A DNA stretch of 64,000 bases from positions 1-64,000 of the forward strand of contig JAAERP010000192.1 in NCBI GenBank assembly GCA_024230215.1, in the 5' to 3' direction. Source of the stretch: Fuerstiella sp. GTDB taxonomy: Bacteria; Planctomycetota; Planctomycetia; Planctomycetales; Planctomycetaceae. The notes below the pieces were generated by a model. That model was not told the DNA's origin. It saw nothing but the letters and a program-made list of their open reading frames with translations, and ran no database searches. A program made the translations under genes and the position numbers. This document shows, in pieces, positions 10,485-27,570 of this stretch (the stretch's first letter is position 1; each line of letters begins with the position of its first letter).

Positions 10485-10641
10485 GTCCGTCGCTCAACGA
10501 AATCGTGCACTGCGTATGACCACGACAGATTCTGCAAACACGCCTTGATGCCAACAAATCGTGTGAGGTCTGTTCCTATTTTGGCGGAGTCTTTTAGACT
10601 GCCGAAAAAGCAACACTCACTCCGTTTTGAAGTATAGACGC

Positions 10642-12208: not shown

Positions 12209-13240
12209 TCAGTGACCTGGCATGCACCAATTGTTCCATTGCTGATTCAGCCATTCCGGGTTCGGTGCGGCGTCCGTGATCAGAAAGCGGTAGCGTCCGT
12301 GGAATGGGTGATCCTGATCAATCGCGAATTCTCCGTCAGCGCAGGGCGCAAAGCAGAAGTACGGCTTGTTTGGATGCAGGCGAGCCGCCTGGGGAGCTCG
12401 AAAGTTCTCGGCGTGACACAGGACGGTGATGCTGACGGGAGCTGTGTCGAGCGTTCCTGTCAACGAAACCCATCTGGCGTGTTCGTGGTTTCCTTTGCGA
12501 CGTTCCGAACCGTGATCGTTCAAAAAGTCACTCGGTTCGCGTTCTTTGTCACCATCGACCGCAGCGTTCCCGGACTTCTTCTGCAGCCATCGCACGGGGC
12601 CGCGGAGCGCGATTCCGCCGTAGTGATATTCGCTGATGACGAGCGGCTTTGCGGTCAGACCCGTCTGCGTCGTTTCCAGGTCGAAACAGTGATACGCGCC
12701 ATCGGTCGGATAGGCGGAGATCTTCCAGCGTTCTCGCAGGATGTCGACCACCGGTTCCTGTACAGCTCGATGCACCAGATCCACTTCGAAACCGGTAGCG
12801 TCGTTGTCGCTGAACGTAGTGACGACACGTTCGTGGAGAACTCGCCCGGTACCGCCGGCGAGATTCCAGAAGTCGACGTCGCGACTATCCCATTTTGTGC
12901 GAACCCACGCCGAAAATATTCCGTGCTGATGCGGGTGATCAAACGGAAAAGTTGCAGTGACGACTTTACCGGCTGGCGACGCCACCGGATGCAGGAAGCC
13001 GCTGCGACGGTAGGCTGGATCAATCCCGTCAGGCAGCGTCGGCGACTGCTTGTTGTACGCGAGAATCTGTTGGCCACCTTGAGTAATTGTAATGGCGGCT
13101 TTCGTCTCAGTCAGTCGCAGTTGTGCTGATGTCGCAACTTGCTGACCGGGTGACTGATCCGCAGGCAATGTGCCTGTTGAAAAACACGGCAGCAGGACAC
13201 CGAGCAACGTGATGAACCTTGTTCGACAATATGTATTCAT
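12209..13240 (-). CDS. PmoA-family (PF14100/DUF6807-like) protein, secreted
   Basis: Signal peptide MNTYCRTRFITLLGVLLPCFS. The conserved core RSGFLHPVASPAGKVVTATFPFDHPHQHGIFSAWV is shared with two paralogs at 51749 and 52745. Confidence 0.75.
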   Translation of the reverse strand: MNTYCRTRFITLLGVLLPCFSTGTLPADQSPGQQVATSAQLRLTETKAAITITQGGQQILAYNKQSPTLPDGIDPAYRRSGFLHPVASPAGKVVTATFPFDHPHQHGIFSAWVRTKWDSRDVDFWNLAGGTGRVLHERVVTTFSDNDATGFEVDLVHRAVQEPVVDILRERWKISAYPTDGAYHCFDLETTQTGLTAKPLVISEYHYGGIALRGPVRWLQKKSGNAAVDGDKEREPSDFLNDHGSERRKGNHEHARWVSLTGTLDTAPVSITVLCHAENFRAPQAARLHPNKPYFCFAPCADGEFAIDQDHPFHGRYRFLITDAAPNPEWLNQQWNNWCMPGH

Positions 13241-13845
13241 GGCAGATTCCATCAGGGACTGCTCGGAAATCGCTCGCTGTCGACGATGTGTCAACGGAGA
13301 CAATTGTCTGTGCGAACACGCTGAGGCTTACAATTCCACCAAAATCAGGCATTCATTGCGAACGGCGGGGCCAGATCATTGTCGTTCTGGAAACTGCGTG
13401 CATCGCGACCGCCGCTCGCCCCACCGTTTATTCGCCACTTGTCTCATGTCACTGCCCATCTTTCAAATTGTTGCTTTCGCAGACCGACCGTATACCGGAA
13501 ACCCGGCGGCCGTCGTGTTTCCTGGCGACGAACCCAACAGTCACTGAATGCAGTCCGTGGCCGCTGAGATGAATCTTGCCGAACGGCCTTCGTTCAAAGG
13601 CTGACGCCAAACCGATTCGAACTGCGCTGGTTTACTCCACTGACAGAGGTGGACCTGTGTGGACATGCCACGCTGGCCACCCCATCCCGACGTCGTACGT
13701 CGTATGTCGGTACGAGCATATACAATGGAGATGAGTATCGTGGGGGATCGAGATCTGTTGCGAGGTAAAGCTGTCACGATCTTTCGTGGCACGCTGGAGG
13801 TGTATGCGTCACTCTCAGGTGTCACATCAGCCTGGGAAGCCCGGG

Positions 13846-15516
13846 CTACTTTTTCCGCTTTGCCAGACTGGCCTCACGGCGTGCCAGAAACTCGTGCGAC
13901 AGTTCGACCGCTCGTTGTCGGTTAGCTTCGTCATAGTCCCAGAACTCCTGCACGATTTCTTCGCACTGCGGATAGTGCGACCCATCGTCACCGATGTCTT
14001 TGCGAAGTTGCGCAAATTGAGCTTTCAGCCTGGTGCCAACATCACGGTACGCAGAATCGTCATAGACATTGTTCAGTTCCTGCGGGTCTTTTACCAGGTC
14101 GTACAGTTCCCAGGCTGGCGGCGTCTGATCAGCGCCTTTGTAGTTACAACCATAGAAATAGATCAGCTTATGAGTCTTCGTACGAATGGCCATCTCGCCT
14201 GGATTGTCATGGTGAGCCATATGCATCCAATATCGGTAATACGTCGCCTGCTTCCACCCGTCTGGTTCCTTGCCGGTTTCACAGATGCTGCGGAACGATC
14301 GTCCCTGCACGGATGCCGGAATATCAGCCCCGGCGAAGTCCAGCATCAGAGCAGGGTAGTCGACGTTCTCCACGATCGCATCACTGCGGATGCCAGGTGA
14401 AATGGTCCGAGGATAGCGGACGATGAAAGGCATGCGTTCAGACTGATCGTAGGCCCAGCGTTTGTCCTGGTAGTCTCTTTCGCCCAGCCAGAATCCCTGG
14501 TCACCCGTGTAGATGATGACGGTGTTGTCGTAAAGGCCTTCCGTCTTCAGGTAGTCGAACAGCCGCTTCAGGTTGTCGTCCACTCCCTTAACGCATCGCA
14601 GATATTTCTTGAGATACGCCTGATACGCCAGTCGCTTGATGTCGTAGTCGGAAAGATTCGGGTCCTTGTGATCCCACTTGAATTCCTTTGGAAATCTACC
14701 GGGCAGATCGGCTGCATAGCTTCGCCGGGGATTGCGTCGGCCGATGGATGTGCCGATGTGGGGCACCAGTTCATCGTTGTGACCTCGCGTCGCGATCGAT
14801 CCCCAGGTATCCGGCATTTCCCACAGCGTAGCCGGTTCCGGAATATCGACATCGGCCAGATACGTATCGTAGCGTGGCGCACTTTCGAAGTAATCGTGCG
14901 GAGCTTTGAACTGGTGGCAAAGGAAGAATGGTTGTTCCGGATCACGATGTTTCCTGAACCATTCCAGCGTGGAATCCGTAATCGCATCGGAGGAATGCAT
15001 GCCCTGGTGCGTCACGACATTCTTCGGCCACGGTTGATCGCCCTGAATTCGGAATTCTGTGTTGAAGTATTTTCCCTGGCCGGGCAGCACCTTGTAGTAG
15101 TCAAAGCTGGGCTCGGTCTTCAGATGCCATTTGCCGACAATCGCCGTCTGATACCCTGCCTTCTTCATCTGAATAGGCAGCGTTTGTTTGTCAGCTGCAA
15201 TTCGTCCCCCCAGATCAAACACGCCGTTGATGTGGTCATACTGACCGGTGATCACACAGGCCCGGGAAGGAGTACAGATGGCGTTGGTGCAGAAGGCGTT
15301 ATCAAAGCAAATGCCTTCGGACGCCAGGGTATCAATCGTCGGCGTCGGATCCAGAGTCTTCAGCAGTGTTGCGAATGCCCCAACTGCCTGAGCCGTGTGA
15401 TCGTCCGACATGATGAACAGAATATTCGGCCGGTCAGCAGCGCTCACCGGATTGATCACACCTGCCGGAATTGTCGCGATGAATGACGTCGCCAGTATTG
15501 CTGCAGTTTTGAGCAT
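13846..15516 (-). CDS. Sulfatase, secreted
   Basis: C-x-P-x-R motif (CTPSRACVITGQY) and ILFIMSDDH. Signal peptide from the ATG at 15516 (MLKTAAILATSFIATIPAGV). Confidence 0.9.
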   Translation of the reverse strand: MLKTAAILATSFIATIPAGVINPVSAADRPNILFIMSDDHTAQAVGAFATLLKTLDPTPTIDTLASEGICFDNAFCTNAICTPSRACVITGQYDHINGVFDLGGRIAADKQTLPIQMKKAGYQTAIVGKWHLKTEPSFDYYKVLPGQGKYFNTEFRIQGDQPWPKNVVTHQGMHSSDAITDSTLEWFRKHRDPEQPFFLCHQFKAPHDYFESAPRYDTYLADVDIPEPATLWEMPDTWGSIATRGHNDELVPHIGTSIGRRNPRRSYAADLPGRFPKEFKWDHKDPNLSDYDIKRLAYQAYLKKYLRCVKGVDDNLKRLFDYLKTEGLYDNTVIIYTGDQGFWLGERDYQDKRWAYDQSERMPFIVRYPRTISPGIRSDAIVENVDYPALMLDFAGADIPASVQGRSFRSICETGKEPDGWKQATYYRYWMHMAHHDNPGEMAIRTKTHKLIYFYGCNYKGADQTPPAWELYDLVKDPQELNNVYDDSAYRDVGTRLKAQFAQLRKDIGDDGSHYPQCEEIVQEFWDYDEANRQRAVELSHEFLARREASLAKRKK

Positions 15517-15789
15517 GATTAGACGTTTCAGATCTGAGGGGGGATGATTCCAGGTTCCGAACCCTGGTTTGGAACCGCATATTCTCGACCGTAACCCACC
15601 AGCTTTGCTGGTGCGCACTCATGAGACCCTGCCGTTCCTGATACAAGCACGCTGCGCCAGCAAGTGATTTTCACGATCGCAAAAAAATCACTCACGCCTG
15701 TTGTATTGCGGCCCCTTTCATGGGGCCTTCGTAATCACCGGCAGCGCAGCTTCCAGGACAGATGCTTCCAGGATGACCTGGGTTCGAAG

Positions 15790-17124
15790 TTACTCGGCCT
15801 TTTTCTTCGGTGACGGAGCCAGCTCTTTAATACTCACGTTTCGGAACTCAACCGGGTCATTGTGACCAGCGAATCCAAAGAAACCGCTGGTGCGATCTTT
15901 TCCCGGGTGAGGCCGTTCAGCCATGAACTCGGTCACTTTCGACAGGTCGGCATCCAGAATCAAGCTGCCATTGAGCTCCACTCTGATTGTGCTGCCATCC
16001 ACGGTGACCTGCTGGAAATTCCACTGCCCGGTCTCACGCAGATAGCCGCGATGCGCGGCAACCATTCCGTAGGCACACCCGTGATATTGCCGGGCGTCAA
16101 GCTTCGCGTATTTTTCGTGTTCAGAATCGAGCACCTGCAGTTCACACATGGCGGCATATGCAGGGTCACCATCACCGGGCGATCGAATGGCAAGACCGTT
16201 GTTTCCACCAGGCGGCAGCTTGAACTCGAGACGGGCAATAAAGTTGCCGTATTCATTTTCTGTCAGCAGTTGTCCGCCGTGGCCGGCTTTGCACCGAATG
16301 GCACCGTCGACGACCTCATAGTTTTCCAGAGCACCCTGCCAGCCGGTCAGATCTTTGCCGTTAAACAGCTGCTGGAAGGCCTGTTGCTGATGAGCTGACA
16401 GCAGGCGATTAGCTTCGTCTGGCGAAATCTCACGGATGAACAGATTCTTCCAGCGGATCTCACCTCCGTGTGTCTGCAATTCGATCGGCCCCTTCGCAAA
16501 CAAGGGTGACTTGCGATCCCAGTAGTTTTCCATGATCGCGTTGTCGACCAGCAACTGGCCGTTCAACCAAACCGTTGTTCGAGCCCCCAGTTGGCGAATT
16601 CGAAAAGTGTTCCATTCGCCAAATGGGTTGTCAGCCAGCACGAAAGGATTTTTCCCGGGAGCTCCGGCACTGTTGTTCCACAGTCCTCCACTGCCCAGGT
16701 CAGAGTCGATCCCGAACTTACCGGGATCCGTGTAGTCCCAGATCTGAACCTGTGGCGTGCCTTTCAAATAGATTCCGCTGTCGGCACGAGGCACGGTCTT
16801 GAAATCAATCAGGAATTCGTAGTCACCAAACTCATCATTCGTAACGAGGTACGCGCCATGCCCGTCGTTGACCAGTTCTCCGTTTTCAACGGTCCAGTGT
16901 TGTTTCGCGCCTGCCGTCCATTCACTGATCTTCGCATTACGGTCTTCGTCGGTCATTTCCCCCAGCTTCCGAGGGTCAAAGTGTGGCCTGCCCTGCCAGC
17001 CATCCAGATCCTTGCCGTTGAATAACGGTCGAAATCCTTCTGGTGCTTCGGCTGCGTGTGTGGCTGGGTGCAAAATGCCAACGATTGAGAGCAGGCATAG
17101 GAACGCATGGCGGCAAGTGAACAT
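15790..17124 (-). CDS. Tandem DUF1080 (3-keto-disaccharide hydrolase-like) domain protein, secreted
   Basis: Two repeats of the FNGKDL(D/T)GWQG ... G(P)IELQTHGGEIRWKNLFI / FAGHNDPVEFRNVSI pattern. Signal peptide from the ATG at 17124. Confidence 0.85.
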   Translation of the reverse strand: MFTCRHAFLCLLSIVGILHPATHAAEAPEGFRPLFNGKDLDGWQGRPHFDPRKLGEMTDEDRNAKISEWTAGAKQHWTVENGELVNDGHGAYLVTNDEFGDYEFLIDFKTVPRADSGIYLKGTPQVQIWDYTDPGKFGIDSDLGSGGLWNNSAGAPGKNPFVLADNPFGEWNTFRIRQLGARTTVWLNGQLLVDNAIMENYWDRKSPLFAKGPIELQTHGGEIRWKNLFIREISPDEANRLLSAHQQQAFQQLFNGKDLTGWQGALENYEVVDGAIRCKAGHGGQLLTENEYGNFIARLEFKLPPGGNNGLAIRSPGDGDPAYAAMCELQVLDSEHEKYAKLDARQYHGCAYGMVAAHRGYLRETGQWNFQQVTVDGSTIRVELNGSLILDADLSKVTEFMAERPHPGKDRTSGFFGFAGHNDPVEFRNVSIKELAPSPKKKAE

Positions 17125-17428
17125 CAAGAAGAATCTCCGGGGCGGTGGGGAATCGATTGGTTGAAGGTGAGCTACACGCATAGGTTACGAAGAAACCGAC
17201 GAAAAACAATGGCGCCCGAAGCCGTTATGTGGCTCCAACGTCTTTCAAAATTCAGCGATGCGGGGAGAAATCGACGCACATCCTTCCATTCGGAACAACG
17301 CCTAATTCAGGCTCATCGCCACTACTCGCTGAGATTTTGTGATCCGCAGGGGCGAATACACGTTATGACTGAGGTTTCCGCCCGGACGAAGCTGGATAAT
17401 CGCAAATCAATGTCGCAAAGGGAATCAC

Positions 17429-18052
17429 GTGGAACAGTTCATTGAAAGCTGCTTTTCGTGGCCGTCATGGCCAGCGTCGGTGCTGCTGTTGTGTGTCTGC
17501 GTCTACTGGATGCTGATGATTGTCGGAGCGGTGGACCTGGACTTTCTGGATATCGATGTGGATCTGGATCTCGACATTGACGTCGACGCCGACCCATCAA
17601 TCCTGGAGTTTGGATTTATTCCGCTGAAGTTCCTGAACATCGGCAGTGTGCCGACGATGGTGTGGGGCAGCATTTTTGCGTTGGTGGGCTGGATGGTGTC
17701 GCGACTGTGGAACAGTCCGTTGCCCCATCCGTCATTTGAGTGGACCAGCGATTCGCTGGCGATCATACGTGACTTTGGGGTGGCCGCGATGCTGACAAAG
17801 ATCATCACACAGCCAATGCGAGGGCGCTTTGACCCGGTGGAACCAAACAAAGCAGAAGACCTTGTTGGTCAGACGTGCATTGTCACGACCAGCGAAGTCA
17901 CAGACACGTTTGGAGAGGCGGAGTTTGCGACGGAAGGTGCGCCACTGCGGCTTAACGTTCGCAACGGCAAACGGGACATCAGCAAAGGGGACACGGTGCT
18001 GATCACGTACTTCCGAAGTGAAACGAATGAGTACGTTGTAGAACGAATGTGA
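17429..18052 (+). CDS. NfeD-like / YqiJ (DUF1449)-type membrane protein
   Basis: TM helix, an acidic DLDFLDIDVDLDLDIDVDAD loop, two more TM helices, and a C-terminal OB-fold-like beta domain (GQTCIVTTSEV...GDTVLITYF). The architecture matches E. coli YqiJ, and the gene sits directly upstream of a flotillin gene. Confidence 0.75.
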   Translation: MEQFIESCFSWPSWPASVLLLCVCVYWMLMIVGAVDLDFLDIDVDLDLDIDVDADPSILEFGFIPLKFLNIGSVPTMVWGSIFALVGWMVSRLWNSPLPHPSFEWTSDSLAIIRDFGVAAMLTKIITQPMRGRFDPVEPNKAEDLVGQTCIVTTSEVTDTFGEAEFATEGAPLRLNVRNGKRDISKGDTVLITYFRSETNEYVVERM

Positions 18053-18222
18053 GTGGTCTCCGGAATCGGCAAAGGAGTTCACTCGATCGGCAGGTCATCA
18101 GGAAATCGTCTAACCGTGTGCTCAACGGACCACGCGAAACACGATGGTTAGAAGAACGCGGGGCGTTGCCCACGCAGTTAAACCAAACAAGACAGAATTC
18201 GATATAGAAACAGGAGCGTCAC

Positions 18223-20259
18223 ATGCTTGCTCAAACATTTCTGGGAATGGACAGCCAGCAGCTGCTGGTAGTCGGCGCGGTGCTGGTCATTCTCGTCCTG
18301 ATGCTCGTGGGAATGGCTACCGCATTCTCAAAGTTCTATCGCAAGCCCGGCCCGGAAGAGGCCATCATTCGGACCGGGGTGAAGGGGTTGGCGGTGATCA
18401 CGGGAAAAGGCATGATCGTGATTCCGCTCATTCAGGAAGCACACGTGATGGACCTGTCCGTTAAACGCATTCTGATCTCACGCGATGGCGAAGACGGCCT
18501 GATCTGTGAGGACAATATGCGAGCCGACATTAAAGTGACCTTCTTTATTCGAGTTAACAATCAGACGAACGACATCAAAACCGTTGCCGAAACCATCGGC
18601 CCCCGTCGAGCATCAGAGCAGGACAAGCTGGAAGAGCTTTTCGAAGCAAAGTTCTCTGAAGCACTGAAGACCGTTGGCAAGAACTTCGAATTTGTTCAAC
18701 TGTATACGGAACGAGATCAATTCAAGGAACAGATTCTGAAAGTGATCGGCACCGACCTGAACGGCTACGTACTGGACGACTGTGCGATTGACTATCTGGA
18801 ACAGACACCGCTGGATCGTCTTAGTCCGACGAACATCCTTGACGCCGAAGGAATCAAGAAGATCACGGAACTAACGGCGGCCGAAAAAGTCAAAGAGAAC
18901 TTCTTCACTCGTGAAAAGGAAAAGACGCTGAAGAAGCAGGACGTGGAAGCTCAGGAAGCGATTCTGGAACTGGAAAAGCAACGCGTCGAGGCGGTCGAAA
19001 AACAGCATCGCGAAATTGCGGCGATTACTTCTCGTGAACACGCTGAAGCCGCGAGAATTCAGGAAGAAGAACGACTGAAGGCTGACTCTGCCCGGATTCG
19101 CACGGAAGAGGAATTGCAGGTCCAGGAAGAGAATAAACAACGACAGGTCCTTGTTGCTCAACGAAACAAGGAGAAAACAGATGCCGTTGAACAGGAGCGA
19201 GTCACTCGTGACCGCGAACTGGAAGTGACGGAGCGGCAGAGGGTTGTTGGGTTGGCTGAAATTGAAAAAGAGAAGGTGATTGAAGTCGAGAAAAAGAACA
19301 TTCAGGAAGTCATCCGCGAACGAGTTACTGTCGAACGCGACGTCGTGGAGGAACAGGAAAAAATCAAGAACACCGAAGCATTCATGGATGCGGACCGACA
19401 GAAGCAGGTGGCCGTCACGCTGGCGGAAAAGACAGCCGAGGAAGCGTTGGTCAAGCAGGTCAAAGCGGCGGAAGCTTCGAAGACAGCTGCTGGACTGCAT
19501 GCTGACGAAGTTGTCGTTGCGGCCGAAGGCAAGCGGGCGTCCGCCGAGAAGGAAACGGAAGCGACCAAGATGCTGGCCGAAGCCAAAGCTGCCGATCACG
19601 CCGCGATTGGCCTGGCGGAAGCCGATGTTATGAATGCCAAAGCTGACGCTACTGAAAAGACCGGCACCGCCGAGGCTCAGGTGCTGCAGCTGAAATTCAG
19701 TGCCGAAGCAACCGGCATTCAGGAGAAGGCGGAAGCCATGAAGCTGTTCGACAGCGTCGGCCGAGAACACGAAGAGTTCAAACTGCAGTTGAACAAGGAA
19801 AAGGAAATCGAAATCGTTGCGATTCAGACTCAGCAGTACATCGCGGAAGCTCAGGCGGGCATCGTTGGCGAAGCTCTCAAGACGGCTCGCATCGATATCG
19901 TCGGTGGCGAAAGCACGTTCTTCGATCAGATCGTGAATTCGGTCAAGGCCGGCAAGTCGGTTGATCGCTTCGTGCAAAACAGCGAAACCGTGACCGACGT
20001 GAAACAGACGTTCTTTAACGGTGATCCCGAATACTTCCGCAATAAACTGACTCAGTTTGCCAGCCAGTTCAATATGAGTTTTGACGACGTGAAGGATCTT
20101 TCGGTGGCTGCGTTGATCGGAAAAATGTTGACGATGGCGGACACGGATGAATCAAAGTCCGAGTTATCCCGCATGCTGGACACGGTCTCGGGGTCGTCGC
20201 TGGCCACACAGAAAATCGCGTCTCTGGCCGGAGGGCTTGCGGGCAGAACAGAGTCGTGA
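18223..20259 (+). CDS. Flotillin-like SPFH/band-7 protein (YqiK type) with long E/A/K-rich coiled coil
   Basis: N-terminal TM helix + FYRKPGPEEAIIRTG...VITGKGMIVIPLIQEAHVMDL...ADIKVTFFIRV is clearly homologous to YqiK/flotillin. About 350 aa of EA-repeat coiled coil follows. Confidence 0.9.
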   Translation: MLAQTFLGMDSQQLLVVGAVLVILVLMLVGMATAFSKFYRKPGPEEAIIRTGVKGLAVITGKGMIVIPLIQEAHVMDLSVKRILISRDGEDGLICEDNMRADIKVTFFIRVNNQTNDIKTVAETIGPRRASEQDKLEELFEAKFSEALKTVGKNFEFVQLYTERDQFKEQILKVIGTDLNGYVLDDCAIDYLEQTPLDRLSPTNILDAEGIKKITELTAAEKVKENFFTREKEKTLKKQDVEAQEAILELEKQRVEAVEKQHREIAAITSREHAEAARIQEEERLKADSARIRTEEELQVQEENKQRQVLVAQRNKEKTDAVEQERVTRDRELEVTERQRVVGLAEIEKEKVIEVEKKNIQEVIRERVTVERDVVEEQEKIKNTEAFMDADRQKQVAVTLAEKTAEEALVKQVKAAEASKTAAGLHADEVVVAAEGKRASAEKETEATKMLAEAKAADHAAIGLAEADVMNAKADATEKTGTAEAQVLQLKFSAEATGIQEKAEAMKLFDSVGREHEEFKLQLNKEKEIEIVAIQTQQYIAEAQAGIVGEALKTARIDIVGGESTFFDQIVNSVKAGKSVDRFVQNSETVTDVKQTFFNGDPEYFRNKLTQFASQFNMSFDDVKDLSVAALIGKMLTMADTDESKSELSRMLDTVSGSSLATQKIASLAGGLAGRTES

Positions 20260-20450
20260 CGCCAACGAACATGCGGCTTTCCAACGGCCCCCTTCTGCTT
20301 TCCGGGGAGAACGGGGCCGAAGACCGGATGAGGGGCCTGTGACGGAAGAACATGCACGTGACCAGCCGTCGTACGCAAGCCCCCTCAACCTAACCCTTTC
20401 TCCAGCGGTGGAGAGAGGACAATCGCAAACTGTTTCCGTCTTAATACTTC

Positions 20451-23400
20451 ATGCCTGAAACCACCGAAAACCAGCCGGATGACACCGCACCGTCGGTGGG
20501 ACTTGAGAGTAGCACGTACGAAATCATTCGTAGTCGGCTGCTGACAGGTGGCAAGGAACTGCGGTCGCGGCTGGATCAACTCAACGACGCGCGAAAGCAG
20601 GTGTTCGGTTCCATCGACACCACGTTGTTAAGCACGGAACGTATTACCACCGCGCATAACTGCATCGCTCGCGATATGGTGGCCATCGGTAACCGAGTCC
20701 TGCTCGGCTACAACGTGCATTTTGGCCTGAAATCGGAAACTGACATCAGTGACGTTTTCGCCGTCTACAATTTCAACGAGGCAAATTCACCGCTCTCGGC
20801 GGCAGAACCCATCTCGGCAATCTCCGCAGATACCACGCCCACGCCCGCCGGGGCTCCCGGCTTTGAACGTGATTTCAAGGAACTGTTTCGGTATTACAAG
20901 AACGCTGTTTTTGCGAAGTTCGCTCGGCGAGGCCCGCATCTGTTCATGGTTTTTCGAGTCGGTAAGTCAGTCGGCGAGATTAAGGTCTTCAAGTGGCTGA
21001 TTGAAGGCAGTGGATCCGGCGACGATACAGGACTGCGATACGTAGACAATCGCAGTGACCACGAATTCCGCTTTCCACCACAGCATGACTTTGAGTGGAT
21101 CCGAACGACACGCGACGACCATCATTACGGTAGTCACCCACACGTTTCGATCAAGGATCGTGTATTCGTCGAAACCGTCGGCGGCGATCTGACCATCAAG
21201 ATCGAGAACAACACCGCCAGCGGCGAAGGCATCTACGCAGAACCCGTCGCAGACGCGGACCAGACGCTGGATGATGCCGAAATCTATTACGCCATCATCG
21301 GCAATATCATTCTGTTGAAGATGAGGCCATACCAGGAAAAGGAATTCCGCTACATCCTGTACAACGAAAAGTTGCAACGGGCGATGCGACTGGATTCGAT
21401 TCGCGATGCGTGTGTCATGCTGCCGGATGATCACGGCCTGATCTTCCCCAACGGCTACTACCTGCAGGACGGCGAATACAAGACGTTTGAACACAAACTG
21501 GCCGACATGCTGTTCGAACGCACCATCATGGCGCCGAACGGCGAAGACTATCTGTACATCTTCTACAACCGCGATTCCGGAACCTACGTGCTGTTGCACT
21601 ACAACCTGATCGAACAGAAGGTCGACACACCACTGATCTGCAACGGTTTTACCTTCTTCGAAGCAGGCGAGCTACTGTGTTTCAAGTCACAGCGAGACGC
21701 TCAGAAGCGACACGCCATTCAGGTATGGCAGACACCGTATGTCGGCGAGGACCACGTTCCACACACGCAGAACGATTCGTTCCTTAACAAAATCGGCAAT
21801 AAGGACATTGTTCGAGGCATGGCGGAATGCCATGAAGTCCTGAACCTGATCAACAAGGAAGACACATACGCGAATTTGTACAGCGATCTGGTAAAGCAAA
21901 GCGGCGAGATCGTGAATTCACACTTCTGGCTGAACCGCGAAGACACGTTCAACCTTGCCGAAACTCTGGGTGAAGTCAAAGCTGCCGCCTCTGCCGCCGT
22001 AGACGAATTTGACAAAGTTGTCCGAGTCAAAAAGAACACTGCTGCTGAAACCAGTGCGACTGTAAATCGCACAAAGGAAATCCTTGCACAGGTAAAGCAC
22101 CGTCGTTTCGAACACATTAACGATTTTGTCAGTTCGCTGAGCGACCTGCGAGCTGTTCGCGGCAACATCATTTCTCTACGGGATCTGCGTTACGTCGATA
22201 CCAATTTGATCGCCGATCTGGAACAGGACGTCGCCGAGCACACTGATCGCCTGTCGCGCACATGCGTGACCTTTTTGCTGCGACCGGCTTCACTGGAGCC
22301 GTACGAACAGAAGGTCCGCGACGAACAGGCCGGGATCGAACATCTGACGAAAGTCACCGATGCAAGAGCGTTGGAAGAGGATATCGCCAGGAGTGCAGCC
22401 GAGCTGGAAATGCTGATTGAAATCGTCAGTAACCTGAAGATCGAAGACGCGACTCAACGCACTGCGATCATCGACAACATTTCCGGGATTTTCGCGACCG
22501 TCAATCAGGCTCGCGCGATTCTGAAGAAGAAACTACGTGAACTGGCATCAGTCGAAGGGATCGCCGAATTCAATTCGCAGATGAAGTTGCTGAATCAGGC
22601 CGTCGTCAACTACCTGGATATCTGTGACGATCCGGAAAAGTGTGAACAGTTCCTCACAAAGATGATGATCCAGCTGGAAGAACTCGAAGGCCGCTTTGCC
22701 GAGTTCGATGAGTTCATCCTGCAGTTGGCGGACAAACGCGAAGAAGTCTACAACGCCTTCGAAAACCGCAAGCTCGCGTTGGTGGAAGCTCGCAACAAGC
22801 GAGCGAACTCACTAATGAGCGCGGCAGAACGAGTGCTGAAGGGCATTCAGACGCGGGCTCAGAGTTTCGAAACGGTCAACGATATCAATGGCTACTTTGC
22901 GTCGGATCTGATGATCGAAAAGGTCCGCGACATCGTCGAGAACCTGAAGGAGCTCGACGACAGCGTCAAAGTCGACGACATCCAGAGTCGTCTGAAGACG
23001 ATCCGTGAGGATGCTGTTCGCCAGCTGAAAGACCGACAGGAACTGTTCGTCGACGGCGAAAATACCATTCGTCTTGGTTCACACCTGTTCTCTGTGAATA
23101 CTCAGGTGCTGGATCTGACGACTGTGATGCACAGCGATGAGTTGTGCCTGCACCTTACCGGAACCAACTTCTTTGAACCGATTCACGATGAACGCCTGCT
23201 GACAACTCGCGCCGTGTGGGATCAGGAAGTCGTTTCCGAGAATCGCAGCGTTTATCGTGGGGAGTATCTGGCCTGGAAGATTCTGCAGGCTGTCTCGTGT
23301 GCCGGTGCTCCCGTGCAGGGCGAAACAGCGCTGGCGGAGCCAGCGGCACACGGCGACGATGCAGCAGCGACTCCTGCCATGGCCCGGTTACTGGAGTTTT

Positions 23401-26063
23401 CGGAAGCGGAACTCCTCAGCTTCGTGCAGCGTTTTATGGGGCCTCGTTACGGTGAAGCGTACACCAAGGGTGTGCACGACGTGGACGCTGCCAACATACT
23501 TCGTGCACTGTGCGGCATGCACCAGACAATCGGCCTGTTGCGATTTGATACTCAAAGTCGTGCATTGGCATTGTTGTGCTGGAAAATCTTCGCAGACAGG
23601 AAGACGAAGACGACAGTGGCGTCTCGCATGGCGGGGGCTGGTGCCATCGCGACCGTATTTCGTGAAGTGGCCGGACGGACGGGATACGTCGCCGAGCTGC
23701 AGGAACTGTTGGCAAAGGTAGCAACAGGGCGAGAGGGGGGGGAGTCTTTTTCGGAAGGTCGTTTACCCGGTAACCAGGACGAAACTCCGAAAAAAACTCC
23801 CGACCCTGTTTGTAGAACCGCTGCCGAATACCTGTTCTGCGAACTGTCCGGCGATGCCGCCTTCGCTGTCAGCAGCGTAGCTGTCGGGCTGGCGAAGGAT
23901 TTTCGCCGGCATCTGAAGTCCAACGGCTTCACCGAAGCCTTCGACAAATCCGTTGAAGCTGTGGGTAAAGACAAAGCGAACTGTTTTGTGCTGCTGAAGA
24001 ACTGGGTGCAGGCCTTCCTGGCCACGAAAAACGACCCGGTTCACGACGACTACGCCGACGAGGTGGCGGTAAGCCTGATGCCGACATGGCCAGGAAAGAA
24101 GCGTGTCATCGAAGCTGCCGTAGACGCTGAGCTAACCGGAATTGTTGGCAGTCACAGCGTGATTGACGGCGGCAGCTATCACTTGAATTACAACCGCTTC
24201 ACCCAGCGGCTGACCGAGTTCGATGCCACCGCTGTTCCACGTTTTAACGACTACGTTGCGTTAAAGCACGAAGCCGTCGAGCACGCTCGCGAAGCCATGC
24301 GACTGGACGAATTTCGTCCGCGAGTTCTTACGTCGTTCGTCCGCAACAAACTGCTGAATGAGGTCTACCTGCCGCTGATCGGCGACAACCTTGCCAAGCA
24401 GATCGGCGTGACGGGTGAAGGCAAACGTACTGACCTGATGGGCCTGTTGCTGCTGGTGTCACCGCCAGGTTACGGCAAGACCACACTGATGGAATATATT
24501 GCCAATCGACTCGGCCTGATTTTTATGAAGATCAACGGCCCGGCGCTGGGGCATCACGTCACATCGCTGGATCCGTCCGAAGCGACCAACGCGGGTGCTC
24601 GCGAAGAAGTGGAAAAGCTGAATCTCGCTCTAGAAATGGGCGACAACGTCATGATCTACCTGGACGACATTCAGCATACCAACCCGGAATTCCTGCAGAA
24701 ATTTATCTCGCTGTGCGACGCTCAACGCAAGGTTGAAGGTGTGTACAAAGGCAGGACCAGGACTTACGACCTTCGCGGCCGTAAAGTTTCCGTGGTGATG
24801 GCTGGTAATCCGTACACGGAAAGTGGTGAGAAGTTCCAGATTCCGGACATGCTGTCCAACCGTGCCGACATCTACAATCTTGGCGAAATTATCGGAGAAT
24901 CCAGCGACGCGTTCGAAATGAGTTACCTGGAGAACGCGCTGACGTCGAACCCCGTGCTCGCGAAACTGGCCAGTCGCAGTCAGCAGGATGTATATGCGAT
25001 CATCAGAATGGCAAACGATGAACCGCGCGACGGTATTGAACTGGAAGGCAACTACTCGCTGGAAGAAATCAGTGAATTGGTCAGCACGATGCGGAAGCTG
25101 ATGCGGGTGCGCGATGTGATTCTGACCGTCAACAGGGAATACATCCGATCGGCTGCTCAAAGCGACGATTACCGAACCGAACCATCCTTCAAATTGCAGG
25201 GTTCGTACCGCAACATGAATCGCATCGCCGAAAAGGTTGTGTCGATCATGAACGATGACGAACTGACTTCGCTGATCGTGTCCAACTACGAAAACGATGC
25301 TCAGACGCTGACGTCCGGTACTGAAGCCAACCTGTTGAAATTCAAGGAATTGACCGGTCTATTGACGAATGTGGAAGCTGAACGATGGGACGACATCAAA
25401 CGAACCTTCCGACAGAACGTCAAACTCAAAGGCATCAGCAGCGACGACAGGACCGGCCAGGTGATTGCCACGCTTGGCAACCTCAGCGACGGTCTTGATG
25501 CCATTCGCAAAGCGATGACGGCGGGCGTGAGCCAGCTGACGGATCAACGAAGCGAAGCACAGATAGAGCCGGTGGAGGACACAGGAGTTGCTGAAAACGA
25601 AGTGCTTGCCCAGCTCATTACGGAAGAACTGTCCGGTCTGAAATCCGGTCTGGCTGATATCAATGCGTCATTGTCGGATGGGGTCAAATGGGGCCGGGAG
25701 TCTTTTTCAGCTCCGCCAACACGTATCCATGAAGTGGAGACTCAGAAAAAGACTCCCAGCCCGGTTCTACCCACCGTAACGCCCGGGGATTCCCTTGCTT
25801 CGGACAGTCCAGCCACGACCACCGGGGTGGACGAACAGTCGCAGGAGGCGCTTCCTCACAAAATCACGGTCGTCAATAAGATCCCACCCACAGTCGTTGG
25901 TGTCTTGAAGCAGCAGTTCAAGCTGATGAATGCCTGGATGGAGCCAATCCACAGTGCCACGCAGGCCCAGCGAAAGGAAACGCGAAAACTGGCCAAACAG
26001 CTGCAGGAATGTATGAATCAGTACGAAGAACTGATCAACCGCATTGAGAATCAGGGGGACTGA
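20451..26063 (+). CDS. Giant (1870 aa) multidomain protein with a C-proximal AAA+ P-loop ATPase module; function unknown
   Basis: Uninterrupted ORF. Walker A LLLVSPPGYGKTTL (about aa 1335), Walker B VMIYLDDIQH, sensor-1-like VVMAGNP. A beta-rich N-terminal region of about 450 aa and about 600 aa of predicted coiled coil precede the ATPase. Co-directional with the NfeD/flotillin pair. Confidence 0.85.
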   Translation: MPETTENQPDDTAPSVGLESSTYEIIRSRLLTGGKELRSRLDQLNDARKQVFGSIDTTLLSTERITTAHNCIARDMVAIGNRVLLGYNVHFGLKSETDISDVFAVYNFNEANSPLSAAEPISAISADTTPTPAGAPGFERDFKELFRYYKNAVFAKFARRGPHLFMVFRVGKSVGEIKVFKWLIEGSGSGDDTGLRYVDNRSDHEFRFPPQHDFEWIRTTRDDHHYGSHPHVSIKDRVFVETVGGDLTIKIENNTASGEGIYAEPVADADQTLDDAEIYYAIIGNIILLKMRPYQEKEFRYILYNEKLQRAMRLDSIRDACVMLPDDHGLIFPNGYYLQDGEYKTFEHKLADMLFERTIMAPNGEDYLYIFYNRDSGTYVLLHYNLIEQKVDTPLICNGFTFFEAGELLCFKSQRDAQKRHAIQVWQTPYVGEDHVPHTQNDSFLNKIGNKDIVRGMAECHEVLNLINKEDTYANLYSDLVKQSGEIVNSHFWLNREDTFNLAETLGEVKAAASAAVDEFDKVVRVKKNTAAETSATVNRTKEILAQVKHRRFEHINDFVSSLSDLRAVRGNIISLRDLRYVDTNLIADLEQDVAEHTDRLSRTCVTFLLRPASLEPYEQKVRDEQAGIEHLTKVTDARALEEDIARSAAELEMLIEIVSNLKIEDATQRTAIIDNISGIFATVNQARAILKKKLRELASVEGIAEFNSQMKLLNQAVVNYLDICDDPEKCEQFLTKMMIQLEELEGRFAEFDEFILQLADKREEVYNAFENRKLALVEARNKRANSLMSAAERVLKGIQTRAQSFETVNDINGYFASDLMIEKVRDIVENLKELDDSVKVDDIQSRLKTIREDAVRQLKDRQELFVDGENTIRLGSHLFSVNTQVLDLTTVMHSDELCLHLTGTNFFEPIHDERLLTTRAVWDQEVVSENRSVYRGEYLAWKILQAVSCAGAPVQGETALAEPAAHGDDAAATPAMARLLEFSEAELLSFVQRFMGPRYGEAYTKGVHDVDAANILRALCGMHQTIGLLRFDTQSRALALLCWKIFADRKTKTTVASRMAGAGAIATVFREVAGRTGYVAELQELLAKVATGREGGESFSEGRLPGNQDETPKKTPDPVCRTAAEYLFCELSGDAAFAVSSVAVGLAKDFRRHLKSNGFTEAFDKSVEAVGKDKANCFVLLKNWVQAFLATKNDPVHDDYADEVAVSLMPTWPGKKRVIEAAVDAELTGIVGSHSVIDGGSYHLNYNRFTQRLTEFDATAVPRFNDYVALKHEAVEHAREAMRLDEFRPRVLTSFVRNKLLNEVYLPLIGDNLAKQIGVTGEGKRTDLMGLLLLVSPPGYGKTTLMEYIANRLGLIFMKINGPALGHHVTSLDPSEATNAGAREEVEKLNLALEMGDNVMIYLDDIQHTNPEFLQKFISLCDAQRKVEGVYKGRTRTYDLRGRKVSVVMAGNPYTESGEKFQIPDMLSNRADIYNLGEIIGESSDAFEMSYLENALTSNPVLAKLASRSQQDVYAIIRMANDEPRDGIELEGNYSLEEISELVSTMRKLMRVRDVILTVNREYIRSAAQSDDYRTEPSFKLQGSYRNMNRIAEKVVSIMNDDELTSLIVSNYENDAQTLTSGTEANLLKFKELTGLLTNVEAERWDDIKRTFRQNVKLKGISSDDRTGQVIATLGNLSDGLDAIRKAMTAGVSQLTDQRSEAQIEPVEDTGVAENEVLAQLITEELSGLKSGLADINASLSDGVKWGRESFSAPPTRIHEVETQKKTPSPVLPTVTPGDSLASDSPATTTGVDEQSQEALPHKITVVNKIPPTVVGVLKQQFKLMNAWMEPIHSATQAQRKETRKLAKQLQECMNQYEELINRIENQGD

Positions 26064-26136
26064 TCAGTTCACCAATGTTGAGCCGATTCCCCCAACTGAC
26101 ACCGCGAAGGAAAACACGGGCCCGGTAGAACCGGGG

Positions 26137-27570
26137 CTATGGAATCTTCTTCAGTAAGGCCTGAAATGCTCCGTCGCTGGGCTGGCCCGGCAGCTGCAGG
26201 TGTTGCGATACCAGGGTTAACCCCGGAACCTGTTTGGTGATGCTTTCCACCAGCTGAGCCGTTTCTTCCGGTTCGATGCTGCATGTTGAGTAGACGATGC
26301 GTCCGCCAGGTTTCACGTGGTCGAAGGCCGTCAGCAGTAGTCGAGTCTGTAGCTGGACCAGTTCATTCACTTCATCTTCCTTGAACCGCCAGCGAGCTTC
26401 CGGTCGCCGCGAGAGCACGCCTGTGTTTGAACAGGGAACGTCGACAAGAACGGCGTCGTAATCCGCATCGGGAATATCGGTGCCGTCACGCTGAATCAAC
26501 ACGGGAGTTGCACTGGTCAGTTTTAAACGCTCAATACTGTCCTCCACGCGCAGCAATCTGCTTTCGGAAACATCACAGGCTGTGATCTGCGCCGTGTCTC
26601 CGCTGAGTTCCGCCAGGTGCGTTGTCTTGCCTCCGGGAGCAGCGCACAGATCAAGAAGTTTTTCACCAGGCTGAGGTGCCAGCAGTTCCGCCGGCAGCAT
26701 CGCGGAATCATCCTGAACAGACCACCAGCCCTCGGCGTATCCGGGAAGAGACGTCAGTCGCGACGCATGCTCCAGTTTCAGTGCCCAGTCATTCTCTCCG
26801 GGCGTAACATCGACGCCATGTTCCTGCAATGCGTCCTGTACCTTGCCAACAGTGGCTCTCAGGCGATTCACACGCAGCGTAATCTGCGGCACCTTCAAAC
26901 TGTGGTAGCAGGATTTCGTCAGATCAAAACGCGACATTCGTGCGCACCAGCGCCGTGCCAGTGATCGCGGCAATGAAAACGCTCGGCCGATGTACTCAGG
27001 CAGGTCGTTGATTGGGTCCGGCAGAATTGATTGGTTCAGCCTGCGATATAAACCGTCCTCTGCTGGCAGTGCATCACCGGCGAAATCTTCGGCGGCGTCG
27101 GTCGACAACAGCCGTGCAACGTTCCGCAGGACTCCGTTGACAAAGCTGCACCAGCGTTCACGGCCTACACGTTTGGCCAGTTCCACCGTGGTGTCGACGG
27201 CTGCATGTTCGGGGGTCCGTGAGTACACGACCTGCCACGTTCCCAGCTGCAGCAGGCGCCAGAGATCCGGTTCGACGTTGGATCGTGGCCGGGAAATCTG
27301 TGATTCCAGAAGCGTGTCCAGAGCACGGCGACGACGCACGACCCCGGACGCCACGTCCACGGCAAGTCCCCGCTCCTGCGACGAAAGTGAATGGCGGGAA
27401 TCTGCCTGGCTCAGGATCTCTGACAGAAATCGACCTGTGTCGTCATAATTCTGCAGAGCGTACCACGCCAGCATTCGACCGTTGTCAAAGTGATCGATGA
27501 TCAGCGTTTCGCCGGTGTCCAGTGTGGCTTTCTTCCAGGGGCTCTTCTGTTTGTGCCTTCGACCGTTCAC
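26137..27570 (-). CDS. rsmB: 16S rRNA (cytosine967-C5)-methyltransferase RsmB/Sun
   Basis: N-terminal NusB-like domain. SAM-MTase motifs LLDLCAAPGGKTTHL, DAVLVDVPCSNTGV, GGRIVYSTCS (catalytic Cys). Confidence 0.85.
   Translation of the reverse strand: MNGRRHKQKSPWKKATLDTGETLIIDHFDNGRMLAWYALQNYDDTGRFLSEILSQADSRHSLSSQERGLAVDVASGVVRRRRALDTLLESQISRPRSNVEPDLWRLLQLGTWQVVYSRTPEHAAVDTTVELAKRVGRERWCSFVNGVLRNVARLLSTDAAEDFAGDALPAEDGLYRRLNQSILPDPINDLPEYIGRAFSLPRSLARRWCARMSRFDLTKSCYHSLKVPQITLRVNRLRATVGKVQDALQEHGVDVTPGENDWALKLEHASRLTSLPGYAEGWWSVQDDSAMLPAELLAPQPGEKLLDLCAAPGGKTTHLAELSGDTAQITACDVSESRLLRVEDSIERLKLTSATPVLIQRDGTDIPDADYDAVLVDVPCSNTGVLSRRPEARWRFKEDEVNELVQLQTRLLLTAFDHVKPGGRIVYSTCSIEPEETAQLVESITKQVPGLTLVSQHLQLPGQPSDGAFQALLKKIP

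Follow-up and report, generated by a model that had tools for sequence, protein, structure and literature searches.

A YqiJ-flotillin-giant ATPase cassette of Fuerstiella sp. is an abbreviated instance of a computationally known operon

The gene pairs yqiJ-yqiK of E. coli, SO1376-SO1377 of Shewanella and yuaF-floT of B. subtilis are SPFH-NfeD-type two-gene operons: the first gene encodes a small membrane protein of the YqiJ/DUF1449 type and the second a flotillin, which combines an N-terminal anchor with an SPFH domain and a charged coiled coil. These operons end after the flotillin and do not involve an ATPase partner; downstream of the pair, sib/ibs loci are found in E. coli and a terminator in Shewanella. 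In FtsH-HflK/C, an SPFH cage surrounds an AAA+ protease, and together with Vps4-ESCRT-III this complex provides the concept of an AAA+ ATPase that is functionally coupled to an SPFH cage or a membrane-remodelling polymer. An operon consisting of YqiJ/YuaF, a Band-7-coiled-coil flotillin and a beta-propeller-coiled-coil-AAA+ protein, with or without a CesT/Tir-PspA pair, was described by Ravi et al. (2024, mSystems, PMC11237479; preprint 2020) with the neighbourhood of Dokdonia donghaensis ANH61663.1 as prototype. These authors placed the operon in the PSP network, also described an abbreviated operon without PspA and suggested that operons of this form work with a PspA from another locus. They did not assign the proteins to Pfam families or the AAA+ module to a clade, and neither flotillin subtypes nor experiments are part of their description.

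We analysed a 64,000-nucleotide stretch of Fuerstiella sp. DNA (the window). As reported in a preliminary description of this DNA, three co-directional open reading frames are located on the plus strand, to which all coordinates given here refer. They encode a YqiJ/DUF1449-like small membrane protein (207 aa, 17429..18052), a flotillin (678 aa, 18223..20259) and a giant cytoplasmic ATPase of the DUF3686 family (1870 aa, 20451..26063), which is 100% identical to a Fuerstiella sp. MAG protein at NCBI. The last three genes of the operon of Ravi et al. share domain architectures, order and strand with these genes, but CesT/Tir, PspA and the HTH regulator of the full operon were all absent across the 64 kb of the window. 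Thus, the Fuerstiella cassette is the abbreviated, PspA-less form and another instance of a computationally known system. The preliminary description had considered it undescribed, which does not hold since exactly this operon was reported by Ravi et al. and the giant falls into existing Pfam families. The full form with CesT/Tir-PspA is present at a Hymenobacter plasmid locus (L001), the giant of which is 51% identical to that of the window.

The YqiJ-like gene and the flotillin gene are separated by 170 nt (18053..18222), which exceeds the distance at most related loci (mostly -4 to about 60 nt), and neither a terminator-like or promoter-like site nor an Rfam match was found in this spacer. 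A further 191 nt (20260..20450) separate the flotillin gene from the giant gene, compared with a median of 124 nt in related loci, and a search for terminator-like sites in this second spacer yielded none. The genes flanking the cassette (3-keto-disaccharide hydrolase, sulfatase, RsmB, PriA) are not conserved with it.

By its sequence, the first gene product is a YqiJ homolog, as had been proposed. BLASTP against E. coli YqiJ gave an E-value of 3e-7 (27% identity, 159 aa) and a family HMM derived from 57 loci matched at E 2e-63; the Pfam YqiJ_N score of 20.7 bits was under the 23-bit cut-off. Hydropathy analysis indicated a single strong hydrophobic segment (aa 17-35) and a soluble C-terminal part, which aligns to E. 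coli YqiJ.

The second gene product had been called a YqiK-type flotillin, and this classification is correct for only part of the protein. When we compared it with E. coli YqiK by hhalign, we obtained a probability of 99.95% (E 1.4e-38, 400 columns), with an alignment that includes the membrane anchor and SPFH region and extends into the first part of the coiled coil. The NCBIfam FloT model matched weakly (E 6e-5) and Pfam Band_7 did not match even at E 10. Behind its single N-terminal hydrophobic anchor (aa 14-32) lies the SPFH region; a charged helical part (about aa 200-510) and a C-terminal module specific to the subtype complete the protein. For the C-terminal 188 residues (aa 491-678) BLASTP detected no similarity to YqiK. 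The C-terminal third (about aa 480-678, 19660..20256) lies outside the YqiK-alignable region and is conserved among giant-linked flotillins, including a block of the form HEEFKL...IDIVGGE...GKSVDR...NLS (alignment A3). The flotillins of the two-gene operons are shorter (553-592 aa) and do not carry this module, since their alignment with the window protein is confined to aa 35-454/476, as it is for other plasmid flotillins. That the partner flotillin has a C-terminal module of its own is new in this analysis, and we propose this module as putative docking site for the giant.

For the giant protein, the preliminary description had named the AAA+ domain as its only recognisable module. However, two additional Pfam families match, DUF3686 at aa 36-492 (628 bits, E 7e-189) and DUF7902 (PF25472) at aa 614-697 (22290-22541, E 2.6e-27). 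The former (20556..21926) corresponds to the beta-rich N-terminal region of about 450 residues noted before, which is thus present and can now be assigned; it forms a divergent beta-propeller-like domain held by a helical bundle (helix 19-52 and helices 444-529). A helical, coiled-coil-like stalk (aa 493-868, 21927..23054) follows, which includes DUF7902 and was termed coiled-coil by Ravi et al. (PMC11237479). Heptad-like segments are located at aa 508-555, 562-627, 632-678 and 711-812, and the Pro/Gly content is low from aa 500 to 900. The helical stretch covers about 370 residues (approximately aa 500-870) and not the about 600 residues of coiled coil suggested previously. In an AF2 model of aa 860-1700 (pLDDT 78.6), the adjoining middle region (aa 869-1300, 23055..24350) comprises a small beta unit (aa 872-910) and a globular helical domain as well as long helices ahead of the AAA+ core. 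This middle region matches no known family and shares 23-42% identity with diverse homologs. Hydropathy analysis did not reveal any hydrophobic or transmembrane segment in the giant. Downstream of the AAA+ core, the AAA+ lid and a conserved post-AAA region (aa 1481-1640, 24891..25370) are helical in the model and show 50% mean identity across diverse homologs. The C-terminal tail (aa 1641-1870, 25371..26060) is variable and mostly absent or unalignable outside Planctomycetota: aa 1701-1870 show 7% identity and 58% gaps, and tblastn matches in other phyla end near aa 1680-1695. A short motif at the tail end (RITVVNK...QF.LM..WM.P, alignment A2) is kept within a homolog set dominated by Planctomycetota.

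The late AAA+ domain noted before (about aa 1335-1480) was readily recovered. Pfam AAA and AAA_5 match at aa 1333-1458, the latter above its cut-off, and the core (aa 1301-1480, 24351..24890) carries the Walker A motif SPPGYGKT (1337-1344, 24459-24482) and the Walker B motif VMIYLDD (1400-1406, 24648-24668). A beta-hairpin (about aa 1427-1440) precedes the sensor-1 strand; N1453 is the candidate sensor-1 residue and R1471 the candidate Arg finger. Walker A, the DD pair of Walker B (1405-1406), N1453 and R1471 are invariant in 18 diverse homologs and the core is 71% identical across phyla, indicating that ATPase activity is under strong selection. Top structural matches of the fold were the MoxR ATPases CbbQ and NorQ, with Mdn1 and dynein also among the nearest. 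This placement of the AAA+ fold nearest to the MoxR/midasin/dynein group is new in this analysis. Unlike midasin and dynein, the giant involves a single AAA+ module and not six per chain, and its propeller, stalk and middle domains occur in this family only. Classical-clade AAA proteins resemble it only around Walker A.

A relative was found in at least 592 GTDB species genomes. Linkage was counted at the 68 loci with at least 2.5 kb of upstream DNA. Here, a same-strand flotillin homolog of the giant-linked subtype was located upstream of the giant in 65 loci (median gap 124 nt), and a YqiJ homolog was present just upstream of that flotillin in 59 of 64. The conserved order of YqiJ-like gene, flotillin and giant on one strand extends over at least nine bacterial phyla; such recurrence beside SPFH/NfeD-type genes had been named beforehand as decisive. 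A nearby flotillin was missing at three of the 68 loci (L017, L023, L041), and about one third of the loci have unrelated genes between the flotillin gene and the giant gene, which means that the cassette does not depend on tight translational coupling. The same gene order is seen in annotated plasmid and chromosome records of Bacteroidota, Gammaproteobacteria, Actinomycetota and Deinococcota, and independent annotation gives it for Hymenobacter, Pseudomonas pQBR103, Streptomyces and Deinococcus. When we searched a collection of 72,556 plasmid records, 322 contained any flotillin match. The 13 records with at least 80% coverage were exactly the 13 that hold the giant, which was absent from the remaining 309, where the flotillin matches were shorter and YqiK-like. 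In this collection, every record with the giant has this particular flotillin subtype and vice versa (13/13), a one-to-one coupling. Taken together, the recurrence and this reciprocity indicate that a functional flotillin-ATPase module is well founded.

With slightly better than even confidence, we consider that the three genes constitute a single conserved and functional cassette building a membrane-associated machine, in which the giant is an ATP-driven remodeller of flotillin assemblies, as the preliminary description had suggested alongside a defence module. The N-terminally anchored flotillin, with the help of its YqiJ/NfeD-type partner, would form an SPFH cage or patch at the cytoplasmic membrane face, by analogy to solved SPFH complexes. 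Among the cage-forming SPFH-NfeD complexes, QmcA-YbbJ comprises 26 heterodimers according to work cited in PMC13086221, and PDB entry 8z5g contains 26 QmcA chains. The giant may oligomerise via its AAA+ ring, probably as hexamer, so that its propeller-tipped stalks could reach the flotillin assembly and dock on the subtype-specific flotillin C-terminus. ATP hydrolysis would then open, disassemble or re-set the assembly, or extract a client held there. In contrast to FtsH and Vps4, the giant does not carry a protease domain, a membrane anchor or an MIT domain. In some lineages the same machine may be wired to the CesT/Tir-PspA pair and an HTH regulator, which suggests that it takes part in the response to envelope or membrane stress. 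The same contextual inference was made by Ravi et al. (2024, PMC11237479). Points against a remodeller of flotillin assemblies are the three loci without nearby flotillin, the unrelated genes that interrupt the cassette at about one third of the loci, the long spacers of the window (170 and 191 nt) and the lack of a VWA/MIDAS partner of the giant, which also counts against an analogy with MoxR proteins. MoxR-type ATPases usually pair with such a partner.

Alternatively, the giant might be a Vps4-like disassembly ATPase for a PspA/IM30 (ESCRT-III-like) polymer, with flotillin and YqiJ only serving as recruiting membrane platform. In 15-17 of 84 loci (e.g. the Hymenobacter locus), genes for CesT_Tir_1 and for PspA_IM30, a member of the ESCRT-III superfamily, immediately precede the cassette, a yjfJ-type PspA cluster is located just upstream in pQBR103, and the B. 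subtilis SPFH protein YdjI was reported to be necessary for membrane localisation of PspA (cited in PMC10936438). In the window, the giant would act on PspA encoded elsewhere in the genome, as Ravi et al. suggest for abbreviated operons. We regard this explanation as unlikely. A mobile conflict or anti-phage (abortive-infection-like) module, in which flotillin and YqiJ sense membrane perturbation by phages and the ATPase drives an effector response, seems improbable. The patchy distribution of the giant and the very high identity of its AAA core across phyla suggest horizontal transfer. Moreover, several copies reside on mega-plasmids or chromids, in Bacteroidota variable genes, with toxin-antitoxin-like and transposase-like ORFs among them, are inserted beside or inside the cassette, a divergent HTH regulator is present in 15 loci (LexA family by Hymenobacter annotation, cHTH+protease in Ravi et al.) and PADLOC mad8 matched the AAA domain weakly (E 0.0019). 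However, beyond generic AAA similarity no component fits a PADLOC defence model, and domain searches of the cassette did not find nuclease, protease, pore-toxin or NADase effectors. The window neighbours are ordinary metabolic and housekeeping-type genes rather than a defence island, 50,697 phage records did not contain a single homolog, and we found no paper tying the giant-linked flotillin system to defence.

The structural matches to CbbQ and NorQ, the AAA_5 assignment and the JGI name 'MoxR-like ATPase' for some family members would be consistent with a MoxR-type chaperone for a membrane protein complex in the flotillin domain, which it would mature or supply with a cofactor, by analogy to CbbQ/CbbO, NorQ/NorD and RavA/ViaA. 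We consider this quite improbable, since the neighbourhood offers neither a conserved VWA/MIDAS partner nor a candidate client enzyme, the relation to E. coli RavA is barely detectable (hhalign probability 17.7%), and the giant has about six times the typical MoxR length with a propeller and a stalk unseen in MoxR proteins. A very remote explanation takes the giant as DNA-repair ATPase with incidental flotillin adjacency. It draws on the names 'DNA repair ATPase' (NCBI family) and 'ATPase involved in DNA repair' (Pfam DUF3686 description), on weak RuvB_N/RuvB matches and on PriA, which is encoded 1.7 kb downstream in the window. A match to a known repair ATPase had been considered as counterevidence before, but neither a repair domain nor a conserved repair neighbour nor any publication was found to back this label. 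Our literature search did not return any paper that mentions DUF3686 or PF12458 or supports a repair role, and DNA-binding, nuclease and helicase domains were not detected in the giant. The RuvB similarity covers about 50 residues of the generic P-loop region around Walker A and PriA is a near neighbour of the giant at just 2 of 84 loci, whereas linkage to the two membrane proteins was observed in about 96% of loci.

The three genes of the cassette were found exactly where the preliminary description had placed them, all on the plus strand: a YqiJ-like gene 1 (17429–18052, 207 aa, GTG start), a flotillin gene 2 (18223–20259, 678 aa) and gene 3 (20451–26063), which encodes a giant protein of 1870 aa. 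The window derives from a metagenome-assembled genome of Fuerstiella sp. (Planctomycetota), and the giant matched an NCBI protein from that organism with 100% identity; the base composition of the cassette resembled that of the rest of the window. The nearest neighbours of the cassette, both on the minus strand, are a divergent 3-keto-disaccharide hydrolase gene upstream (15790–17181) and the convergent rsmB downstream (26137–27570); a sulfatase gene lies farther upstream and priA farther downstream. The upstream genes have no relation to the cassette and concern carbohydrates and sulfated glycans: they encode an FGGY sugar kinase (10627–12171) and, on the minus strand at 12209–17181, a DUF6807 protein, an SGSH_C-domain sulfatase and the 3-keto-disaccharide hydrolase-domain protein. 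The spacers within the cassette (170 nt at 18053–18222 and 191 nt at 20260–20450) are both longer than in most related loci, where the distance between YqiJ and flotillin was mostly −4 to about 60 nt and that between flotillin and giant had a median of 124 nt (300 nt or less in 40 loci). Scanning of the region 17000–26400 yielded no promoter-like (sigma-70-like) site and terminator-like sites at chance level, none of them within either spacer, and an Rfam search of the cassette region including both spacers retrieved no family. Thus, co-transcription is possible but the scan is uninformative either way.

When an annotated plasmid collection was searched with the giant by tblastn, we found it in 13 records, some of them really chromosomes or chromids, from Hymenobacter, Pseudomonas, Proteus, Halomonas, Vibrio, Photobacterium, Streptomyces, Nonomuraea and Deinococcus. 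In all four annotated regions examined, a protein of about 145–215 aa, an SPFH/flotillin protein of 643–722 aa and then a "DNA repair ATPase" were encoded on one strand. With one genome taken for each GTDB species, a pattern scan yielded at least 592 confirmed relatives of the giant, and the best 80 of these loci belonged to Planctomycetota, Bacteroidota, Verrucomicrobiota, Desulfobacterota, Kiritimatiellota and Clostridia. For 84 related loci, six-frame ORFs were searched by jackhmmer with the three proteins of the window as queries. Among the 68 loci that extend 2.5 kb or more upstream of the giant, 65 had a flotillin homologue there on the same strand, and in 59 of the 64 loci with room upstream of the flotillin, a YqiJ homologue stood just before it. 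The giant does therefore recur beside SPFH/NfeD-type genes across phyla, an observation that the preliminary description had named as decisive, and its reading of the locus as a flotillin-associated machine is well supported by this conservation.

Three loci from MAGs of Desulfobacteraceae, Cytophagaceae and Bacteroidia (L017, L023, L041) carried the giant without flotillin or YqiJ within 6–9 kb upstream. In L019, L020, L030, L031, L032, L048 and L062, which are mostly of Bacteroidota (L020 is of Desulfobacterota), 0.7–2.4 kb of unrelated genes separated flotillin and giant. The inserted genes include those for small lipoproteins and membrane proteins, a nucleotidyltransferase/antitoxin-like pair and, judged from sequence, a transposase-like ORF; this junction of the cassette can evidently be interrupted. 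The inserts of Bacteroidota were considered as fourth components and rejected, since they are heterogeneous and not conserved.

In the reverse direction, the window's flotillin served as tblastn query for the plasmid collection and matched 322 records. Exactly 13 of them reached a flotillin coverage of at least 80%, and these were the same 13 that hold the giant. The other 309 contained shorter, YqiK-like flotillin matches; among the matches listed (mostly E. coli, also Salmonella), aa 35–454/476 were aligned at about 28–30% identity. This reciprocal overlap (13/13) indicates that the giant is coupled to one flotillin subfamily, which is marked by its C-terminal module. Taken together, the three genes form a conserved unit that is complete in itself, in which giant and flotillin subtype are reciprocally coupled.

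Gene 1 belongs to the YqiJ/DUF1449 (NfeD-like) family, as indicated by homology, by its position upstream of the flotillin and by its membrane N-domain. BLASTP aligned it with E. coli YqiJ over 159 residues (E 3e-7), including the soluble C-terminal part, and a family HMM built from related loci matched it with E 2e-63. Its Hymenobacter homologue is annotated as DUF1449. Hydropathy analysis revealed one strong hydrophobic segment (aa 17–35). The Pfam YqiJ_N score (20.7 bits) was below the 23-bit cut-off and Pfam NfeD did not match.

Gene 2 is a member of the SPFH/flotillin family, with homology to YqiK across the SPFH domain, an N-terminal hydrophobic anchor (aa 14–32) and a charged coiled coil (helical, Pro/Gly-poor region at about aa 200–510). 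RefSeq names its homologues "SPFH domain-containing" or "flotillin family". Pfam Band_7 and Flot did not match even at E 10, NCBIfam FloT matched weakly (22 bits), and searches of the PDB with the single sequence and with a profile gave solely a weak coiled-coil match to QmcA. Since the PDB and Band_7 searches were unproductive, the SPFH identity was established by hhalign of a profile of 14 homologues with E. coli YqiK, which gave a probability of 99.95% (E 1.4e-38) over 400 columns that run from the anchor through the SPFH domain into the beginning of the coiled coil. The last third of the protein (about aa 480–678) is strongly conserved among its closest relatives, but its final 188 aa lacked BLASTP similarity to E. 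coli YqiK. Because of this and of the confinement of YqiK-like matches to aa 35–454/476, we consider gene 2 to represent a distinct flotillin subfamily. The designation "YqiK-type flotillin" thus holds for the 400 homologous columns and fails for the C-terminus; membership of the YqiK orthologous group was rejected, as the C-terminus is not colinear with that of E. coli YqiK.

The giant belongs to the Pfam DUF3686/DUF7902 "DNA repair ATPase" family. DUF3686 (PF12458) matched aa 36–492 over the full-length model (628.5 bits, cut-off 25, E 6.6e-189), DUF7902 (PF25472) matched aa 614–697 (95.3 bits, cut-off 26), and AAA/AAA_5 matched the C-terminal module at aa 1333–1458 (AAA 30 bits); all three domains are precomputed in each of the 120 listed homologues. 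With these Pfam matches, the earlier statement that the AAA+ domain is the sole recognisable module is incorrect. An AlphaFold2 model of aa 1–530 (pLDDT 81, pTM 0.82) contained about 25 strands in four-stranded sheets, flanked by a helix (19–52) and by helices at 444–529. Foldseek returned 134 PDB matches at E ≤ 1e-3, and nearly all of the 50 listed hold propellers (Elp1, the LRRK2 WD40 domain, a kelch protein, pseudaminidase, CyRPA, prolyl oligopeptidase), with TM-scores of only 0.10–0.34. In our reading, the modelled N-domain is a diverged, propeller-like fold around which a helical bundle closes like a clasp; this agrees with the label "beta-propeller" given to it by Ravi et al. (2024; PMC11237479). 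A heptad-like, Pro/Gly-poor stalk follows at about aa 500–870, so that the 600 aa of coiled coil previously proposed shrink to about 370. In a second model (aa 860–1700, pLDDT 78.6), a small beta unit (aa 872–910) was followed by a globular helical domain, long pre-AAA helices and a canonical AAA+ core with lid. Hydropathy analysis revealed no hydrophobic segment; the giant is soluble and both its partners are membrane proteins.

Conservation was assessed in an alignment of the window's giant with 17 diverse homologues (29–51% overall identity). Walker A (SPPGYGKT), the Walker B residues DD 1405–1406, N1453 and R1471 were invariant, and identity to the window's sequence was 71% in the AAA core, 50% in the lid region and 39% in the propeller domain. 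From this alignment, the ATPase motifs appear to be under very strong purifying selection. With Walker A/B, a candidate sensor-1, a candidate arginine finger and a core-plus-lid fold, aa 1301–1640 fall within the AAA+ superfamily, and from this membership the giant is predicted to form a hexameric ring and to hydrolyse ATP. The classical AAA clade (Cdc48/p97, FtsH, Vps4) was rejected since similarity is limited to the Walker A surroundings: phmmer and profile matches to p97, NVL and Rix7 covered about 35–115 residues there, hhalign aligned 34 columns with FtsH, and the Pfam AAA match ended at model position 72 of 131. As such matches are uninformative on the clade, we used the fold instead. 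In the model, a beta-hairpin at about aa 1427–1440 lies between the Walker B and sensor-1 strands, and the fold of the AAA+ module appears to be nearest to the MoxR/dynein group. RavA was barely detectable by hhalign (probability 17.7%), and this, together with the restriction of sequence matches in solved relatives to about 35 residues at Walker A, argues for an independent AAA+ family.

The last 170 residues of the giant are essentially lineage-specific in this alignment. The C-terminal 170–230 residues (25371–26060, aa 1641–1870) are confined to close relatives of the window's protein, and homologues from other phyla stop or become unalignable near aa 1690. A short motif, RITVVNK...QF.LM..WM.P..., is conserved at the end of this tail in the Planctomycetota-dominated homologue set and may act as a signal for interaction or localisation that is specific to the lineage. 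Two further homologues, P0082 ("eukprot", 64% identical) and P0023 (labelled Porticoccaceae, 70% identical), are among homologues that, where named, are Planctomycetota; contamination or mis-binning seems a likelier origin for the two than true close relationship in a eukaryote or gammaproteobacterium.

The arrangement had been called undescribed, but Ravi et al. (2024, mSystems, PMC11237479; bioRxiv 2020) had already reported this very arrangement, a CesT/Tir-PspA dyad combined with three genes of the cassette type. These authors also mentioned a phospholipase D gene for some Proteobacteria; none was noticed incidentally in the loci examined here. The cassette is thus a member of a computationally described operon type, here in its abbreviated form (without the dyad) and in a Planctomycetota lineage. 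What our analysis adds is the Pfam identity of the giant, the baselessness of its "DNA repair" label, the quantified synteny, the flotillin-subfamily coupling and, from modelling, a probable MoxR/dynein-like fold of its AAA+ module. Our literature search found no paper on DUF3686, PF12458 or "DNA repair ATPase" together with flotillin, and the other PSP, ESCRT and SPFH papers that we checked do not treat the giant. In Shewanella, SO1376/SO1377, which has been studied by knock-out, is a simple yqiJK pair, closed by a terminator and lacking the giant, so the SO1377 knock-out phenotypes are not transferable to the cassette.

All-against-all ORF clustering revealed just three further recurrent neighbours, in 15–17 of the 84 loci, mostly of Bacteroidota: proteins of the PspA/IM30 and CesT_Tir_1 types and an HTH regulator in divergent orientation; none of the window's own flanking genes was conserved with the cassette. 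PspA and CesT family HMMs built from related loci had no match within the 64 kb, which makes the window's operon the abbreviated form, and the position upstream of the cassette is taken by the divergent 3-keto-disaccharide hydrolase gene. In the Hymenobacter plasmid locus L001, an HTH_3 regulator annotated as LexA family (1577–2362) stands divergently beside the full CesT-PspA-YqiJ-flotillin-giant form, and 15 further loci carry it likewise (ORF cluster 8, e.g. L029 3335–4096). It corresponds to the "cHTH+Protease" of Ravi et al. (2024; PMC11237479), and these annotations hint that the operon is induced in an SOS-like manner under control by cleavage. The window contains no HTH regulator of this full-form type.

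We are highly confident that flotillin and ATPase form one functional module. That a flotillin–YqiJ assembly is acted on by the giant in an ATP-driven manner is the reading towards which we lean slightly, and we infer the specific docking and remodelling steps with far less confidence than the existence of the module. By analogy with SPFH-NfeD cages, flotillin and YqiJ would assemble beneath the membrane as a cage or patch; a passage of PMC13086221 cites a QmcA-YbbJ cage of 26 heterodimers, and PDB 8z5g contains 26 QmcA chains. Among AAA+ motors, those of the MoxR, midasin and dynein type have long appendages by which they pull on partners. The giant would form a ring, reach the flotillin assembly with propeller-tipped stalks and bind the subtype-specific C-terminal module of the flotillin. 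Driven by ATP, it would then open, dismantle or reset the assembly, or extract a client. The link to PspA/CesT and the HTH regulator in some lineages suggests deployment in envelope stress. That PspA itself is the true substrate of the giant we consider unlikely.

Nor do we favour the cassette as a mobile defence module. It occurs on several mega-plasmids, but no giant homologue was found in a phage collection, and PADLOC-DB 2.0 gave a generic AAA match to mad8 (E 0.0019) and nothing for flotillin or YqiJ. A known anti-phage system was rejected on this sole generic match, and with both results the defence reading is kept as an improbable rival. The modelled fold would also suit a MoxR-like maturation chaperone with an unspecified client, to which we assign a slim chance: a VWA/MIDAS partner, as in CbbO, NorD and ViaA, was absent among the recurrent neighbours of the 84 loci, and Pfam detected no VWA domain in the giant itself. 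A genuine DNA-repair ATPase, as the NCBI label has it, is very improbable. This label has no traceable basis, and PriA adjacency was dropped as a hint of DNA metabolism because PriA lies near the giant in 2 of the 84 loci alone.

The cassette bears on what bacterial flotillins do and on how SPFH cages open and turn over. SPFH deletions in P. aeruginosa gave little phenotype (PMC13086221). A flotillin subtype that almost never occurs without an ATPase of 1600–1900 aa offers a genetically tractable entry point, and loss-of-function or trap mutants of the giant should show a sharp phenotype that reports the flotillin's job. We put forward, tentatively and as doubtful, that the giant would be the first dedicated, energy-consuming regulator of SPFH/flotillin cages, a hexameric MoxR/dynein-like motor whose coiled-coil arms, tipped by propellers, would hold the subtype-specific flotillin C-terminal module and which would open or dismantle the cage on demand. 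If so, bacterial flotillin microdomains would be actively cycled rather than passively assembled, and the strict partner coupling would provide a clean handle on the contents of the cage. As the operon has been described computationally, this is not the discovery of a new kind of system; it could make flotillin function testable, and its existence will not surprise specialists in PSP comparative genomics. With relatives in at least 592 species genomes from no fewer than nine phyla and on several mega-plasmids, the cassette is widespread, and the misleading "DNA repair ATPase" label spreads through annotations, so that its correction is of practical value. On the P. fluorescens SBW25 plasmid pQBR103 (L002, 1–12190), a yjfJ-type cluster (PspA/IM30, rhomboid protease, DUF2491, DUF350, DUF1190 and a glutathionylspermidine-synthase-like protein) is followed directly by the cassette on the same strand. 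Together they make up about 12 kb of arrayed membrane-stress genes. As this environmental mega-plasmid has been well studied, it offers a convenient experimental host.
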